Origin: Escherichia coli
GTDB lineage: Bacteria > Pseudomonadota > Gammaproteobacteria > Enterobacterales > Enterobacteriaceae
Strand: one strand, 5' to 3'
DNA length: 64,000 bases
Assembly (NCBI RefSeq): GCF_041248615.1
Contig: NZ_CP158426.1
Positions 2,662 through 33,845 of the stretch are shown here, piece by piece; within the stretch, counting starts at the first letter, position 1, and the number at the start of each line of letters is the position of its first letter. Position numbers and translations under genes: made by a program. The notes beneath the pieces are model-generated. The model had not been told where the DNA came from. It saw only the letters and a program-made list of their open reading frames with translations, and ran no database searches.

Positions 2662-3543
2662 TTACATAGATGTTTCGTTTAATTCTTCCCGACGAACGCT
2701 GTAAACGTCGGTGGCTTTTGCCAGCAGTTCGTCATCATCTGAAAGTTTTTGTGCAATGTATTTGTAAGCCTTATCCAGTTCGGAGACAGTGCTGTAATTC
2801 ATCGCTGCGCTGGTAAAGGCCATCAGCATTTCTTCTGGATCACGGCTATCCGCTTTACGCGTTTGCTCATCATGCTTTTTCACTGGTTTAGCGTTGATCA
2901 GACTGTTCATTCCCGCAGCAGTAGTCGTTTGCGGAGTAATGTCTCGCTCAACGCGCGGTGCCGTTTCCTGTAATTCGTCAGGGGTGTAAACACCGAGAAG
3001 CACATCAGGAGCGTGCAGGCGAGCCCATCGTTTCGTGCAAAGATAGGCAAGCTGCTGGCGCGGATCCTGTTCCCACAATGGAGAGTTACGCACTCCGGCT
3101 TGCGCCATACTGATGGTAAGCTCACGGGGTTCTGCTTCTCCTTTAAGAACTGCTGACACAGTTACCGTCAGATTCGGTGATTTATCTGTTTTGCCGTTAA
3201 CATTCGACCAGTCACCGCTCCAGCGATAATTCAGGCGTGTCGCTAGCAGGCTGGAAGAGGATACGACCGCGTTTACCAACTGTGCTTCGTAGCCTAACGT
3301 TCCGTTTACCACATGCGTTTTCTGCGCCACGGCGAAAGGGTTCATTCCCCACTGTGCCGCCTGCATGGTCACCGCCAGACAATCGGCAGGTTTGCCTTCA
3401 AGATGTTTCGGTACAGTCGCTTTGCTTTGTGACATCAACTCCGCGAAACGCACCAGTTGATTCATGCCCTCGGGGCTGAAGATTGCCGCAGCAGTGCCTA
3501 CAGTTGCGCCTGGTTGTGATGTGATTGCGATATCATTGCTCAT
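2662..3543 (-). CDS. Single-strand annealing protein, Bet/RecT family
   Basis: 293 aa; GMNPF region and ERDITP motif shared with lambda Bet; immediately downstream of exonuclease gene with 4-nt overlap. Confidence 0.6.
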   Translation of the reverse strand: MSNDIAITSQPGATVGTAAAIFSPEGMNQLVRFAELMSQSKATVPKHLEGKPADCLAVTMQAAQWGMNPFAVAQKTHVVNGTLGYEAQLVNAVVSSSSLLATRLNYRWSGDWSNVNGKTDKSPNLTVTVSAVLKGEAEPRELTISMAQAGVRNSPLWEQDPRQQLAYLCTKRWARLHAPDVLLGVYTPDELQETAPRVERDITPQTTTAAGMNSLINAKPVKKHDEQTRKADSRDPEEMLMAFTSAAMNYSTVSELDKAYKYIAQKLSDDDELLAKATDVYSVRREELNETSM

Positions 3544-4361
3544 ACGTACATATCCTGTTTACGTGCCCAGTCAGGGCGTTTAATAATTTCCACGCCGCCC
3601 CATTCATCATTTATGCGGCATTCGTGATAGGTATTCAGATCCCGGCGGAACAGAGCGTGCCCGGCATCGACATCCGGCGCATCCAGCTCGAACACGCGTA
3701 CCGGATACCGACCACAATCAATGCTTTCGCTCACGGCAAGAAAGAAAAAACCATGCGGTTGACCAGTAACCCTCATTGCGCCTTCGCGGTACATTGCGTC
3801 CTGCACGTGGTAGCGGAATTCCTCGATGTGGCGTGCAAAACGGTCCATATCTGCAACCTTTTTCACGTCGACGATCACGTTGTGCTCGTTCAGCCATTTG
3901 TCTGGACGAATGCGGCACAACTCACCCGTCTCTTCATCGTTCCAGTACATTGATGCTTCGCAGTAACCAGGTGCTTCCAGCATCCAGCGTGCCGCCGGAT
4001 GAGCCATTGCGCTATCACGCATGAGCTCAAGTTTTCGCCACTGCTCGACATCAAGTACCGTAATACCCATATCCGCCACATCACGAAGAAATGCTTCTTC
4101 GTCAGCTTTACCTTGTTTTGTCCGACGATCGAATTTCGGTGAAACGATGAAGCGTTTGTCAAACTCTCCAGGTTCCAGAAGCAGACAGTGCAGAGCAGTA
4201 CCCATGTCCAGTGCAGACTTCTTCTCTTCGTCTTCCGGAGCAGCCTTCACCCATTTCAGAAGGGCAGGGTTCTTAGCCACCATATCTAGCTGCGACTTAC
4301 TCACGCCGTCACCGGCGTGGTAGTCCTCGTTGCTGATATCGAAATAAATTCCCGGATTCAT
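3540..4361 (-). CDS. PD-(D/E)XK exonuclease (RecE/YqaJ-like) partner of the annealase
   Basis: 273 aa; N-terminal ISNEDYHAG..SKSQL and RPDKW...VDVKK nuclease motif. Confidence 0.6.
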   Translation of the reverse strand: MNPGIYFDISNEDYHAGDGVSKSQLDMVAKNPALLKWVKAAPEDEEKKSALDMGTALHCLLLEPGEFDKRFIVSPKFDRRTKQGKADEEAFLRDVADMGITVLDVEQWRKLELMRDSAMAHPAARWMLEAPGYCEASMYWNDEETGELCRIRPDKWLNEHNVIVDVKKVADMDRFARHIEEFRYHVQDAMYREGAMRVTGQPHGFFFLAVSESIDCGRYPVRVFELDAPDVDAGHALFRRDLNTYHECRINDEWGGVEIIKRPDWARKQDMYV

Positions 4362-4965: not shown

Positions 4966-5550
4966 TTATTGTTTGTTTTTTTCGTTCTGGTTGATGACAA
5001 ATTCAATGTAACTTTCGATCTTTGCCTTCTCTGTTTCAGGTAACAATGCGTAGCGCGAGCGGTCATAGTTGATAGTTGCAGGGTCATGCGGATGAATCAG
5101 TAGTTCATATCCGTGACGCCCGAATGCAGATGCAACATTCTCCAGGGTGGAAATGGAAACGCTGACTTCATTGTTTAACAGGCGGCTTATTGTCACCTGG
5201 GCGACGCCGGATGCGCGGTGAAGTTTTCCCTGAGTTGAAAGGTCGCGGCTTTCACTCATCCAGCGTTCCAGGTTGTGAGCTGCCAGCTGACCAATGTCGC
5301 TTGGGCCGACAGGCTGAAAACCTTCCTGAGAAAGCGAGCGATCGATATCAAGCCAGTTACGGGGTTTATTGGCGGCAGCTTCAATTTTTCGCGCAACCTG
5401 GTCGCCGATAACCTTCTTGCCAAGAGCCCAGCGGTTTACCAGATTTGCCTGAGTTCCAAGTTTTTCTGCCATCCGCGTCTGAACACCATTGAATTCACGG
5501 TCGATCAAGTCGTTGAGATTTTGCCTGCGGACGTCCTGGATACTTTTCAT
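4966..5550 (-). CDS. CI-like prophage repressor with two HTH (XRE-type) domains, no S24 peptidase domain
   Basis: 194 aa; two HTH-like segments (res ~10-65 and ~100-150); divergent from Cro-like gene; operator clusters on both sides. Confidence 0.6.
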   Translation of the reverse strand: MKSIQDVRRQNLNDLIDREFNGVQTRMAEKLGTQANLVNRWALGKKVIGDQVARKIEAAANKPRNWLDIDRSLSQEGFQPVGPSDIGQLAAHNLERWMSESRDLSTQGKLHRASGVAQVTISRLLNNEVSVSISTLENVASAFGRHGYELLIHPHDPATINYDRSRYALLPETEKAKIESYIEFVINQNEKNKQ

Positions 5551-5605: not shown

Positions 5606-5668
5606 TTACCCAACAGGTAAATGCACCTCATAGGTAACTATCCTTGATTTTTGTTACCTTATGGGTGA
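5606..5668. promoter_or_regulatory. OR-like tripartite operator: TTACCCAACAGGTAA (5606-5620), GCACCTCATAGGTAA (5623-5637), TTACCTTATGGGTGA (5654-5668)
   Basis: Three 15-bp palindromic sites in the 154-bp gap between divergent repressor and Cro-like genes. Confidence 0.65.
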
Positions 5669-5679
5669 ATATTTATTAT
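5651..5679 (+). promoter_or_regulatory. Candidate pR: -35 TTGTTA (5651-5656), 17-bp spacer, -10 TATTAT (5674-5679)
   Basis: Sigma70-like hexamers with 17-bp spacing; third operator overlaps the spacer. Confidence 0.45.
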
Positions 5680-5704
5680 CTGAAATAAATATCAGGCAAT
5701 AGCT

Positions 5705-5935
5705 ATGAGCGATAACGGACATTTCGATTTCAAAAAGCACTGGCTTGCACTTACTCCGGATGAGCGTGAAGCCTTCGCACAGGAAGCCGGAACGACGAGT
5801 CACTATATCCAGACTCACTTAACAGGTAAGCGCAAAATGCCAGGTAAAGTATTGATGAATGGGCTTTTTAAAGCCTGTAAAACAAGACAATGGCTGCGCT
5901 CAAAAGCAGAACTGGCATACTTCTTCTACTCATGA
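5705..5935 (+). CDS. Cro-like small DNA-binding protein
   Basis: 76 aa, divergent from repressor, followed by terminator; HTH-like segment AFAQEAGTTSHYIQTHLTGKR. Confidence 0.5.
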   Translation: MSDNGHFDFKKHWLALTPDEREAFAQEAGTTSHYIQTHLTGKRKMPGKVLMNGLFKACKTRQWLRSKAELAYFFYS

Positions 5936-5956
5936 TATCCAGCCACAACCCTCTGT

Positions 5957-5980
5957 AGACCGCCACCCGGCGGTCTTTTC
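5957..5980 (+). terminator. Rho-independent terminator after cro-like gene
   Basis: Perfect 8-bp stem AGACCGCC/GGCGGTCT, loop ACCC, followed by TTTTC. Confidence 0.7.
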
Positions 5981-6301: not shown

Positions 6302-7117
6302 ATGAGCAGACATGCAACAGATTGGGCCTGGGAGACAGATCCAGGTAGCTCGTCATTAAAGCTCATACTGCTCTCGATGGCTGACAGAGCCGATGAATAT
6401 AACCTCTGCTACCCCAGCATAGAACGCCTCGTTAAAGACACTTGCCTGAATAAAAAAACCGTGCAGGCCGGGCTTATATCGCTCATGAAAATGGGGCTTA
6501 TTTCAGATACCGGAGAGAGAAAGGGGGCGACGAAAAGAGTACGGGTTTTCTCTCTTAATATAACCAAAAACGGGAACATTAAAGGCAACCGGGAGGGGGG
6601 TAATGAACCCGAAAACGGTAATGTTACCGAAAACGGGAATATACCCAAAAACGGGATGTTGAATGATCCCAAAAACGGGATGTTGAATGATCCCAAAAAC
6701 GGGATCCAGAACCAGTCATATAACCAGTCATTTAACCAAGAGAGGGAGAGCAGGACAAAAAGCGGGGATTCTGTGCCTCATGACCCCGGCGCAAACAACG
6801 CCGTGATGAATAACTTTGTTCCTCCTGGTGGGCCAGGGCAATTAGGCAAATTTGTCATGCATGAACAATGGCAGCCATCAGATGACTTTCTTCGGAAAAG
6901 CTCATTGCAGGGGATCTACCTGGACAGTCTGCCAACGGCACAGGAACTTGCAGAGTTCAGAATTTACTGGATGGCTGAGGGTAAGGCATACCATCAGGCA
7001 CAGTGGGAGCAGAAGCTGGCAAGGCGGCTGCAGATTAGCAGACAGAAGCAATCAACATTACCTGATAACAACGTTCCGCACTGGAACAGCCCTGAAGCAT
7101 GGGAGGATTTCTTGTGA
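6302..7117 (+). CDS. Replication initiator (O-like) with N-terminal HTH and DnaT-like C-terminal domain; contains origin iterons
   Basis: C-terminus GKFVMHEQWQPSDDFL...EFRIYWMAEGKAYHQAQWEQKLARRLQI resembles E. coli DnaT C-terminus; iteron array inside gene. Confidence 0.7.
   Translation: MSRHATDWAWETDPGSSSLKLILLSMADRADEYNLCYPSIERLVKDTCLNKKTVQAGLISLMKMGLISDTGERKGATKRVRVFSLNITKNGNIKGNREGGNEPENGNVTENGNIPKNGMLNDPKNGMLNDPKNGIQNQSYNQSFNQERESRTKSGDSVPHDPGANNAVMNNFVPPGGPGQLGKFVMHEQWQPSDDFLRKSSLQGIYLDSLPTAQELAEFRIYWMAEGKAYHQAQWEQKLARRLQISRQKQSTLPDNNVPHWNSPEAWEDFL
6564..6707. repeat. Iteron array (6 direct repeats CC(A/G)AAAACGG(G/T)A..., including a perfect 24-bp tandem duplicate 6644-6667 / 6668-6691); probable phage origin of replication
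   Basis: Direct repeats read in sequence inside the O-like gene, analogous to lambda ori within O. Confidence 0.6.
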
Positions 7118-7899
7118 ACAACGTTTTTACCGCGATACAAAACCGTGACGGAGAAGCCCTTTCTCGCATGTCAGGTTATGAGCATCAGTACGTCAACAAT
7201 GACAATGTGGTGAACATGTCAGCAGAGAGGCTTGTTGATGCCCTTTTTAAACAGCTGAAACAACTGTTTCCGGCGGCAGTGGTAACCAACCTGAAGACGC
7301 CAGAGCAGGAAGTTGCTGCAAAACAGCAGTGGATTGCTGCGTTTGCCGAAGGGGGGATCCGAACCCGTGAACAGGTTTCTGCTGGTATGCGCCACGCCCG
7401 CGCCAGTGAATCTCCGTTCTGGCCGTCTCCAGGGCAATTTATCAAGTGGTGCAAAGACAGCAAGATGGTTCTTGGCGTCACCATTGACGATGTGATGGCG
7501 GAGTTTCACCGGTACAGCAAGGAAAAAAGTTTATATCCTGGTGGTCCCGAAAGATTCCCGTGGCGACATCCGGTTATGTACTGGGTCGTATGTGATACCC
7601 GCCGTGCAATGTATCAGCGCCAGCTTAGCGAGATTGAGGTTGAGAAACACGCGCGCAGGCTGCTCGATGATTGGGCGAAAAAGGTGGCTTCCGGACAGCA
7701 GATACCCGATCCGGTGATCAGCATACAGGCAAAGCCAGAACCCATGAGTACACCTCCGGACACAGGGAGAGACGTTTACCATCCACCAGGGCGAAGTTTC
7801 GGGTGCATGCCTAACGCCGCCACCCTTGGGGGAATAACACCGGCGCAGTGGCTGATGGAGGAATACAGGCGGGGAAAGGCGGCAGGATTTATCAAGTAA
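7099..7899 (+). CDS. Replication protein P-like helicase loader
   Basis: Segment QQWIAAFAEGGIRTREQVSAGMRHARASESPFWPSPGQFIKWC aligns with lambda P (RRQWVLAFRENGITTMEQVNAGMRVARRQNRPFLPSPGQFVAWC); true start may be slightly downstream of 7099. Confidence 0.75.
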   Translation: MGGFLVNNVFTAIQNRDGEALSRMSGYEHQYVNNDNVVNMSAERLVDALFKQLKQLFPAAVVTNLKTPEQEVAAKQQWIAAFAEGGIRTREQVSAGMRHARASESPFWPSPGQFIKWCKDSKMVLGVTIDDVMAEFHRYSKEKSLYPGGPERFPWRHPVMYWVVCDTRRAMYQRQLSEIEVEKHARRLLDDWAKKVASGQQIPDPVISIQAKPEPMSTPPDTGRDVYHPPGRSFGCMPNAATLGGITPAQWLMEEYRRGKAAGFIK

Positions 7900-8016: not shown

Positions 8017-8370
8017 ATGAGAAAACAGATACAGGCTCTTGGTCGACTCAAAACAGGTCAGATGAACAAAACAGAATCTGCGTATTGCCAGCACCTTGAG
8101 CTGCGTAAACGTGCAGGAGAAATCGTCTGGTATCGATTTGAGGGTATCAAGCTGCGGTTAGCTGACAACTGCTTCCTGACTGTAGATTTTGCCGTGATGT
8201 TGGCTGACGGGCAGTTGGTGATGGTGGACGTTAAGGGAAGTAAGTCAGTCTTTACTGACGATGCGAGAGTCAAGATGAAGGTTGCGGCAGACAGCTATCC
8301 GTTTGTCTTTCAGGTTGCTTATCCAAAACCTAAAAAGCTCGGTGGTGGATGGGAGGTTGAGGAACTATGA
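8017..8370 (+). CDS. Hypothetical protein, DUF1064-like, possible PD-(D/E)XK nuclease fold
   Basis: 117 aa; D...VDVKG motif; family assignment from memory only. Confidence 0.45.
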   Translation: MRKQIQALGRLKTGQMNKTESAYCQHLELRKRAGEIVWYRFEGIKLRLADNCFLTVDFAVMLADGQLVMVDVKGSKSVFTDDARVKMKVAADSYPFVFQVAYPKPKKLGGGWEVEEL

Positions 8371-8975
8371 GCGAGAAGCCCAATGCTGCGGGATTGATTG
8401 TATCCGGTGATAAAAACCCGAATTGGAAGGGTGGGAAAATCGAAAAGGTTTGTTCCGTATGTGGCAGGCAATATCAGGTTAAGCGAGCCAACTCATCTTC
8501 AAGGTTCTGCTCACTTCAGTGTGTAGGAATTTCACAGCGAGGCAAGACGGTAAATCGGGAACTAAAGCGAGTATTAAAAATATGCTGCGTATGCGGATCT
8601 TCGTTCTCCGTTTTCTTGAGTCATGAGAAGCGTCATAAATGCTGCTCGAAACAGTGTTCCAACATAATGCGTTCTTCTCTGATGAAGGGGGAAGGAAATC
8701 CAAACTGGTCTGGTGGATTATCGAGATTGCCGTATCCGTGGGATTTCCGAGAAACGAGCAAGAGGGTTATTGAGCGAGATGGTTTTACTTGTCAGAACCC
8801 AGGTTGTGATGGAACAGACAAAAGGCTAACAACTCATCACATCAATTACGACAAGCAAGACTGTCGTCAGGAGAACCTTATTTGCCTTTGTTCGAGCTGT
8901 AACTCGAAGGCTAATTTCGGTCGGCATAAGTGGCAAAAGTTTTATGAATCACTGATGAAAAATAGATCGGCATGA
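8367..8975 (+). CDS. HNH endonuclease with two N-terminal zinc-ribbon-like modules
   Basis: 202 aa; C-terminal HHINYDKQDCRQENLICLCSSCNSKAN (HNH motif); two CxxC...C..C clusters. Confidence 0.7.
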   Translation: MSEKPNAAGLIVSGDKNPNWKGGKIEKVCSVCGRQYQVKRANSSSRFCSLQCVGISQRGKTVNRELKRVLKICCVCGSSFSVFLSHEKRHKCCSKQCSNIMRSSLMKGEGNPNWSGGLSRLPYPWDFRETSKRVIERDGFTCQNPGCDGTDKRLTTHHINYDKQDCRQENLICLCSSCNSKANFGRHKWQKFYESLMKNRSA

Positions 8976-14852: not shown

Positions 14853-14929
14853 TGGCGTGGCATGCAGGATTCGAACCTGCGACCAACCGCTTAGAAGGCG
14901 GTTGCTCTGTCCGACTGAGCTAATGCCAC
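14853..14929 (-). tRNA. tRNA-Arg (anticodon UCU), phage-encoded
   Basis: 77 nt; reverse complement GTGGCATTAGCTCAGTCGGACAGAGCAACCGCCTTCTAAGCGGTTGGTCGCAGGTTCGAATCCTGCATGCCACGCCA; 7-bp acceptor stem, T-loop GGTTCGAATCC, anticodon loop CTTCTAA, encoded CCA; close to E. coli argU in layout. Confidence 0.85.
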
Positions 14930-33608: not shown

Positions 33609-33731
33609 CACCGCAACGCCAATTACTGGTGGTGAACTGGACAAGGTTGGCGTACCGGCCTAAGTGGTACCGGCGTCCTTTCGGACCCCTGCCCAGCCCA
33701 CCATAATTCGGATATAGCTGTGCTTAACGCA

Positions 33732-33755
33732 TAAAAAAACCACGTCTGGCGTGGT
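33732..33755 (-). terminator. Rho-independent terminator downstream of small antirepressor-domain gene
   Basis: Stem ACCACG/CGTGGT with A7 run on plus strand. Confidence 0.6.
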
Positions 33756-33845
33756 ATGCGCCACTTAGTAACTCGGGACGCCAATCCCGGCACTGGATTT
33801 TGCCAGTGCCAGATTACTATGGCACAAGAGGAGTGCGATGTAAAT

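Follow-up and report, generated by a model that had tools for sequence, protein, structure and literature searches.

A 64-kb window of the Escherichia coli NRZ14408 chromosome (positions 1,440,001–1,504,000) begins in a prophage integrase gene and carries an array of six direct repeats inside a replication initiator gene, at 6564–6707 of the window. We consider this array likely to be the initiator-binding (iteron) half of a lambda-type origin of replication in a phiV10-type prophage. The repeats are unique in the window, and their motif is conserved at the DNA level and tied to the N-terminal domain (N-domain) of the initiator. The layout is lambda-like, the copy number is variable and the C-terminal domain (C-domain) keeps the residues with which host DnaT binds single-stranded DNA (ssDNA). 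Read in this way, the origin is an ordinary example of the known lambda design and was previously unannotated.

A probable origin would thereby be placed for a very common E. coli prophage type, which is found in roughly a tenth of complete genomes and has the O157 typing phage phiV10 among its members. This is of use for building mini-replicons, for reading induction coverage profiles and for prophage annotation.

The repeat array and its motif across lineages

Exact matches to CCRAAAACGG were found at 6564, 6609, 6627, 6645, 6669 and 6693, all on the plus strand. The expected number in the 64-kb window is 0.33, and none of 100 dinucleotide-preserving shuffles reached six matches. When one mismatch was allowed, the total was 11 (8.55 expected), and only five scattered singletons were gained. 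As this total is within chance, a second motif cluster is absent from the window.

The repeat search returned a single six-copy family with start-to-start spacings of 45, 18, 18, 24 and 24 bp. Tandem Repeats Finder (TRF) reported a 24-bp unit (2.6 copies with 100% identity, 6644–6705), an 18-bp unit (3.1 copies, 6599–6654) and, separately, a 12-bp unit AACCAGTCATAT (2.4 copies, 6710–6738). The original prediction, made from the sequence alone, had described six direct repeats with a perfect 24-bp tandem duplication inside the gene at 6302–7117, and both were confirmed (cores at 6564–6702). The 12-bp unit was not part of it.

In the best copies, the sequence is GATCCC-AAAAAC-GGGAT(C), a partial palindrome (GATCCCAAAAACGGGATC is an example in the window). 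Dyad pairing covers 5–6 of 9 positions in copies 5 and 6 and reaches 7–8 of 9 in relatives. In the 45-bp gap between copies 1 and 2, CCGGGAGGGG at 6590 is possibly a decayed iteron, which would split the gap into 26 + 19 bp. The array is at its most polymorphic here (6591–6601). Iterons 5 and 6 contain three GATC (Dam) sites in a stretch of 42 bp (6665, 6689 and 6703), and a density of three GATC per 45 bp is reached at only three places in the window. An open reading frame (ORF) of 95 aa on the minus strand (6409–6696) was discounted as arising from the repeats.

We checked how the array varies among close relatives, using 80 IMG/VR contigs from E. coli prophages with N-domains 99–100% identical to that of the window. 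The exact core count ranged from 4 to 9 (mode 6), and both the 18-bp and the 24-bp units expand and contract. BP9 has one 24-bp unit fewer, and in phiV10 a third 12-mer is present. Among 45 distinct genes of the same length, most changes fall between copies 1 and 2.

All six cores lie inside the ORF at 6302–7117, start at codon position 2 and share one frame (codons 88–134). They encode (T/P)(K/E)NG within ...ITKNGNIKGNREGGNEPENGNVTENGNIPKNGMLNDPKNGMLNDPKNGIQ..., between the N- and C-domains, which agrees with the earlier proposal that the repeats encode an NG-repeat linker. The repeats could be a slippage-prone Asn/Gly-rich coding linker with no DNA function, and the origin could be elsewhere. 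The single frame would fit with this, as would spacings that are all multiples of three, the perfect tandem duplication of the three 3' copies, the variable copy number and the recurrence of the peptide PKNG in closer relatives. A comparison of more distant genes speaks to this point.

The comparison set consisted of 17 lineages sharing the N-domain, and the collected initiator genes share it at 27–57% identity. The annotated phages were PPompW, Edwardsiella GF-2, Vibrio Her, Acinetobacter AP22, AB1 and Ab105-2phi, Burkholderia Bcep176 and a podovirus from an EBPR metagenome. The IMG/VR part comprised six clusters at <80% N-domain identity, one of which (L098) is Bcep176 itself. The motif CC[AG]A[AT][AT]N[CT][GC]G was present within 260 bp past the N-domain in 15 of these 17, which are lineages at <80% N-domain identity and come from metagenomes and five host genera (Escherichia, Edwardsiella, Vibrio, Acinetobacter and Burkholderia). 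The first copy was always at codon 88–109 in these 15 lineages.

Across the lineages, all three frames are used to read the motif, and the encoded peptides differ. The peptides are GPKSE, SQNRN, SENGT, SQKPP and VPNLG in Bcep176, and STKNG, QSQKR, VPKTE, SPENG and VPKSG in the EBPR phage. In Ab105-2phi, GTACCGAAATTGGTAC occurs four times and encodes TEIG. Palindromic copies that are not needed for coding are GATCCCAAAATTGGGAT (GF-2), GTCCCAAATTTGGGAC (Bcep176) and the Ab105 repeat just mentioned. A second locus set from IMG/VR gave frame counts of 11, 6 and 4. In this set, the motif occurred 21 times in 1560 bp past the N-domain versus 6 times in 45,562 strand-bp of flanks, which is about 100 times denser. 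The three frames, the unrelated peptides and this density mean that the motif is conserved as DNA and not as a peptide.

The frame test thus contradicts a purely coding repeat. Further points against it are the dyad symmetry, which is kept, and the codon usage: Pro in the motif is encoded only by CCC or CCG, and the core persists in genes with a GC content from 36% to 61% (36–37% in the Acinetobacter phages, 61% in the Burkholderia phage). We regard a repeat with a coding role alone as close to excluded.

The N-domain and the iterons occur together with quite different partners. GF-2 combines them with a C-domain 62% identical to that of lambda O and with a P gene. The neighbour is a DnaB-type helicase gene in AP22, AB1, Ab105 and the IMG/VR locus L165, and Her and Bcep176 have other neighbour genes. 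On sequence comparison, it is the N-domain that the motif follows, not the remainder of the protein, and C-domains and partner genes are swapped around it. One N-domain/iteron module is common to phages of at least five genera, where it has been recombined with DnaT-like, lambda-O-like and other C-domains and paired with P-type loaders or DnaB-type helicases.

The O gene of Min27 has an HTH_36 N-domain that is 28.7% identical (tblastn) and carries different palindromic repeats, GGGGCAGGAGCTGCCC, three times at the same place. These repeats (at about 2290–2360 of locus L093) encode GGAGAA. They suggest that the architecture is kept and the iteron specificity differs.

Recognition of the repeats by another protein is extremely improbable, be it a factor of the host, SeqA acting at the three GATC sites or some other DNA-binding protein of the phage. 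The cluster of GATC sites in copies 5 and 6 would suit such a protein, and the prophage encodes two methyltransferases; however, the GATC sites are not conserved across the N-domain family. The copies in Her, Bcep176 and the EBPR phage use AGTCCC...GGGACT or GGCCC...GGTAC. Moreover, across lineages the N-domain alone is constantly paired with the motif.

Initiator, loader and the opening site

The initiator consists of a winged-helix N-domain, the repeat-encoded linker, a C-domain like the C-terminal domain (CTD) of DnaT and a short acidic/aromatic tail. Its best PHROG match was phrog_1032, 'replication initiation protein' (E = 1e-108), and the product name given by PGAP is 'DnaT-like ssDNA-binding domain-containing protein'. 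HTH_36 was matched at aa 18–67 (Pfam, E = 1.8e-10). The AlphaFold2 model of aa 1–95 is a winged helix with a pLDDT of 89.8 and the topology H-H-H-H-beta-beta. A Foldseek search with this model returned weak generic winged helix-turn-helix matches (MarR, ArsR, TFE and plasmid Rep; E ~0.003–0.04) and no informative initiator match. The N-domain motifs (N/D)(K/R)KT and DTGE(R/K)(K/R)G are kept across lineages.

Membership in the lambda O family (Phage_rep_O, PF04492) was rejected. Pfam gives HTH_36 only, and lambda O itself has a Phage_rep_O match and no DnaT match. Similarity to the N-domain of lambda O was not significant (BLASTP E = 0.073; hhalign probability 8.5%) and none was detectable to its C-domain (hhalign probability 0.3%), with shallow alignments used in both hhalign comparisons. 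The initiator is O-like in architecture and outside the lambda O family.

The C-domain is DnaT-like rather than lambda-O-like, as had been predicted. PF17948 was matched at aa 184–252 (Pfam, E = 1.2e-15). With phmmer, aa 180–265 matched the DnaT chains 9zbt_D, 6aep, 4ou6 and 2ru8 in the PDB (E = 7e-21 to 3e-19). This region is ~50% identical to residues 85–170 of E. coli DnaT, and Klebsiella DnaT was also matched. A homologue search with the C-domain by itself yielded just eight candidates. In DnaT, six residues were found by mutagenesis to be required for ssDNA binding: K133, K143, R146, Y127, W128 and F135 (PMC4132743). They align with K228, K238, R241, Y222, W223 and Y230 of the initiator, so that five are identical and F135 is replaced by Y230. 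The status of a DnaT orthologue was rejected: only DnaT residues 85–170 align, and the N-terminal half consists of HTH_36 and the repeats. The initiator carries a DnaT domain without being a DnaT orthologue.

A lambda-P-like helicase loader gene follows, also as predicted. The protein matches PF06992 (Phage_lambda_P) over its full length (positions 2–162 of 162, E = 1.5e-56) and shares 31% identity with lambda P across 201 aa (E = 2e-35). PGAP names it 'replication protein P'. Its GTG start overlaps the initiator stop by 4 nt (GTGA), and the gene is translationally coupled to that of the initiator. The overlap is the same in phiV10 and is ATGA in lambda. An alternative in-frame ATG is at 7099.

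In 10 of the 80 near-identical relatives, the initiator tail is replaced by ...SLDWHNTDWIDEVWDEINSRTS (in the context ...LDWHNTDWIDEVWDEI...), which resembles the end of lambda O, LDLTNTDWIYGVDL. In the same 10 relatives, the first ~95 aa of P are replaced by lambda-P-like sequence. As the tail and the N-terminus of P are adjacent, these changes form one contiguous mosaic block, which spans the last ~25 aa of the initiator and the first ~95 aa of P and has a replacement tail of the NTDWI type. The block was seen at 3248–3600 of the IMG/VR locus L015 and in nine similar loci, compared with 7067–7400 of the window. The joint swap suggests, at the level of sequence, a mutual contact between the tail and P. 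The ZX5 initiator has a tail of the lambda-O-like type. The SPN1S initiator has a DnaT-like tail, and there is no P-family gene among the four genes downstream.

The combination of a DnaT-like domain with a P-type loader had been called an unusual pairing, and this did not hold. Of 5426 complete E. coli genomes, 542 carry the initiator–P module. Independent pairs of a DnaT-domain initiator and a P-type gene occur in PPompW, ZX5 and Rac (YdaU/YdaV), in the IMG/VR loci L113, L133 and L156 and, as annotated, in Tyrion and a Klebsiella phage. Moreover, phrog_15931 matches both initiator and P proteins, which hints at possible initiator–P fusions. As the pairing recurs widely, a DnaT-like domain beside a P-type loader is not odd.

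The array is directly followed by an element with the copies AGAACCAGTCAT, ATAACCAGTCAT and TTAACCAAGAGA in the window. In 11 of 13 lineages, a box RGAAYM (AGAACC here) lies exactly 6 nt past the last iteron core. Up to three more boxes, and at least one, come after it at intervals of 9–13 nt in varying frames, 16 times denser than elsewhere. The conserved box suggests that the functional neighbour of the array lies on this side. The CAGAAC-box element is probably part of the same composite element and is the best candidate for an opening or ssDNA-binding site. The top strand of the 60 bp after the array is A-rich (A = 25, T = 7; 30/11 in lambda). DnaA boxes (TTWTNCACA) were not found within 20 kb of the array.

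Iterons of plasmid replicons serve both initiation and control. The repeats could likewise bind the initiator mainly for control (O–P autoregulation, titration/handcuffing or incompatibility), with opening and loading elsewhere, for example at 6533–6580 or outside the gene. The least stable 40-mer of the gene is indeed on the 5' side of the array (6540–6580; 66% AT, top 5% of the window), the 3' side lacks a strong AT-rich tract, and O of Stx phages binds well only four of six iterons (PMC7466680). We nevertheless consider a mainly regulatory array unlikely, because the CAGAAC-box element is directly 3' of the last repeat in most lineages, the same layout in lambda is the origin itself and the window holds no second cluster of the motif.

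Several observations weigh against an origin at the array. A lambda-type AT-rich tract was not found: the best 40-mer 3' of the array has 60% AT versus 80% in lambda, and the array with its 3' flank is only among the 12–18% least stable 40-mers of the window. Dyad symmetry is poor in the first four copies (3–5 of 9 pairs). The peptide (P/T)(K/E)NG is fairly conserved in closer relatives, so some protein-level constraint is possible. Among the 45 same-length genes, 4 of 60 core positions were variable versus 13 of 84 other array positions, and this lower variation was not significant (Fisher p = 0.12). The array was not seen in BS46 (36% N-domain identity) or in ZX5, which belongs to the same genus and has a different N-domain. 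In the literature, an origin description was found neither for phiV10- or epsilon15-type phages nor for the motif. The original prediction of a probable origin mirroring ori-lambda stands for the DNA element tied to the N-domain and for its lambda-like placement, while the AT-rich tract is weak or absent.

If the array is the iteron half of an origin, initiation might proceed as follows. The N-terminal winged helix would bind the six partly palindromic repeats, probably as dimers, and the bound initiators would build a multi-protein complex on DNA with one A5 tract per repeat. The duplex would open first at the adjoining CAGAACC/12-mer element with its A-rich top strand, and the many tethered DnaT-CTD-like domains could bind the exposed single strand. 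The C-terminal region, probably the tail, would bring P carrying host DnaB, the helicase would be loaded and replication would start at the array. The box element and the intact ssDNA-binding residues offer testable ideas on origin opening without an AT-rich tract.

A more tentative idea, by analogy with DnaA, is that these initiators may be compact two-function origin proteins. The winged helix would tether copies at the iterons, the DnaT-CTD-like domains would polymerise on the A-rich CAGAAC-box strand, and the tail would select the route of helicase delivery. The route choice would then be between the W-rich tail HWNSPEAWEDFL and the NTDWI tail, each with matching P variants, or the DnaT-like tail without a P gene in SPN1S. 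Within the preprimosome, the CTD of DnaT forms a filament on ssDNA, and the mechanism by which DnaT recruits DnaB–DnaC is unknown for the host (PMC13377028). If true, the two-function reading would provide a simple, sequence-targeted model for the handover from the DnaT filament to the helicase–loader complex.

Prophage type and neighbouring genes

Over 1598 bp covering the initiator and P genes, the window is 97.6–99.4% identical to EC.W1-9, phiv142-3, PAS61 and phiV10. The latter three are recorded as genus Uetakevirus. The gene order shared with phiV10 is RecT/exonuclease, repressor, cro-like gene, small ORF, initiator, P and DUF1064. The phiV10 record has terminators annotated in the region and no origin or repeat feature. 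The features of the replication region are listed in Table 1.

Table 1. Features in and around the initiator gene (positions in the 64-kb window)
Feature	Position	Strand	Evidence
Divergent repressor gene, two HTH motifs, immunity region	4966–5550	−	Pfam HTH_3; phiV10 p40 'putative repressor'
Early-right transcription unit upstream (promoter-like site, cro-like gene, terminator-like hairpin)	5651–5976	+	consensus scan, phrog_35
Promoter-like site	5651–5679	+	consensus scan
Cro-like gene	5705–5935	+	phrog_35
Terminator-like hairpin	5957–5976	+	scan; a terminator is annotated there in phiV10 too
Replication initiator gene, O-like by position/architecture, 271 aa	6302–7117	+	ORF, Pfam, PHROG
Winged helix-turn-helix N-domain coding region, aa 1–87	6302–6562	+	HTH_36, AlphaFold2 model
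Iteron array (probable)	6564–6707	+	six CCRAAAACGG cores; spacing 45/18/18/24/24 bp
Candidate decayed seventh iteron CCGGGAGGGG	6590–6599	+	6/10 matches to the core; proposed from the sequence
Post-iteron element C-CAGAACC-AGTCAT / ATAACC-AGTCAT / TTAACC-AAGAGA	6706–6743	+	12-bp TRF unit, conserved box
DnaT C-terminal-domain-like module, aa 180–265	6839–7096	+	phmmer vs PDB, Pfam
Initiator C-terminal tail ...LPDNNVPHWNSPEAWEDFL	7067–7114	+	candidate docking motif for P-type loader
Lambda-P-type helicase loader gene	7114–7899	+	PF06992, phrog_109, PGAP start 7114

Transcripts from the early-right unit would cross the array. The counts in the promoter and terminator scans were not above those of shuffles, so this evidence is weak and was used as context only.

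Two relatives of the same genus differ in the replication region. SPN1S (a Salmonella phage, locus L094, 1548–4258) is an epsilon15-type relative with a DnaT-like domain in its initiator, and a comparable iteron array was not seen there. In ZX5 (vB_EcoP_ZX5, locus L095, 1476–2306), the C-terminal half of P is nearly identical, the N-terminal part of the initiator is unrelated, and direct repeats were not found in the initiator gene.

The record of 'Escherichia phage BP9' (PP488543.1, locus L003) is 138 kb long and classified as Vequintavirus. Its right end (133,437–138,010) contains the phiV10-type repressor, initiator and P and is 97.9% identical to the window. The presence of these genes in a Vequintavirus record suggests an assembly chimera or contamination.

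Downstream, a 202-aa ORF (8367–8975, plus strand) matches HNH endonuclease families (phrog_1271, E = 4e-23), and PGAP leaves it unannotated in the chromosome record that corresponds to the window. At that position it is missing from phiV10 and L015, where an eae-like gene comes directly after DUF1064. From its sequence, it looks like the insertion of a free-standing homing endonuclease. On the minus strand, the RecT-family gene (2662–3543) and the PD-(D/E)XK nuclease gene (3540–4361) are separate overlapping ORFs, and the phiV10 record has a single RecE–RecT fusion. A tRNA-Arg gene (anticodon TCT, 14853–14929, minus strand) lies in the prophage between the terminase and portal genes. A C4 antisense RNA (33625–33708) and the Hfq-binding RNA isrK (33733–33809), both on the minus strand and far from the replication region, scored above the Rfam gathering threshold.

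Comparison with known systems

Plasmid initiators (Rep, RepA and TrfA) and DnaA provide a working analogy, in which a winged helix sits on repeated sites and a second activity holds the adjacent single strand. A parallel between DnaT and DnaA has been drawn (PMC13377028). The N-domains of plasmid Rep proteins gave weak fold matches (4pql and 5kbj, E ~0.01–0.03). The differences are that the initiator has no sequence relation to Rep_3 or to AAA+ DnaA and that the probable origin lies within the initiator coding sequence.

With E. coli DnaT (primosomal protein I), the initiator shares the ~50% identical CTD and the six ssDNA-binding positions. The DnaT N-domain and the PriB-binding linker are replaced by the winged helix and the iteron-encoded linker, and a W-rich acidic tail stands in place of the C-terminal DnaT residues RDVNTVSEPD.... 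By analogy, targeting here would be by DNA sequence, whereas DnaT is targeted by PriA/PriB at a stalled fork (PMC13377028).

The Rac genes YdaU/YdaV and PPompW have the same order, an initiator with a DnaT-like domain followed by a P-family gene. Rac has been reported to have an active origin, oriJ (PMC3945230). PPompW and the loci L113, L133 and L156 share both the N-domain and the iterons with the window phage, whereas Rac YdaU has a DUF1376 N-domain and such an iteron array was not seen in it. In the Rac/PPompW type, the P-type protein is short (140–156 aa) and matches only the C-terminal part of the P profile, and the initiator has a C-terminal extension of ~80 aa.

The layout matches that of ori-lambda, an experimentally defined origin (PMC7466680). 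The differences are in the N-domain (HTH_36 here, Phage_rep_O in lambda), in the C-domain (DnaT-like here, the lambda O C-domain there) and in the region after the repeats, where the CAGAAC-box/12-mer element takes the place of the 80%-AT tract. Moreover, all copies here share one frame. The number of copies also differs between relatives of lambda itself, with four iterons in lambda and six in Stx phages (933W and P27) (PMC7466680). In both systems, the iterons are inside the initiator gene, directly past the N-terminal DNA-binding domain: the lambda iterons ATCCCTCAAAACGAGGGA start from O codon 117, past Phage_rep_O at aa 22–115, and those of the window from codon 88, past the winged helix. 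The repeat is partly palindromic around an A-tract in each case (ATCCCTC-AAAAC-GAGGGA in lambda, GATCCC-AAAAAC-GGGATC here), the spacing is ~18–24 bp, and past the array, on its 3' side, the top strand is rich in A. Finally, a P gene overlapping the initiator stop by 4 nt completes the arrangement in both.

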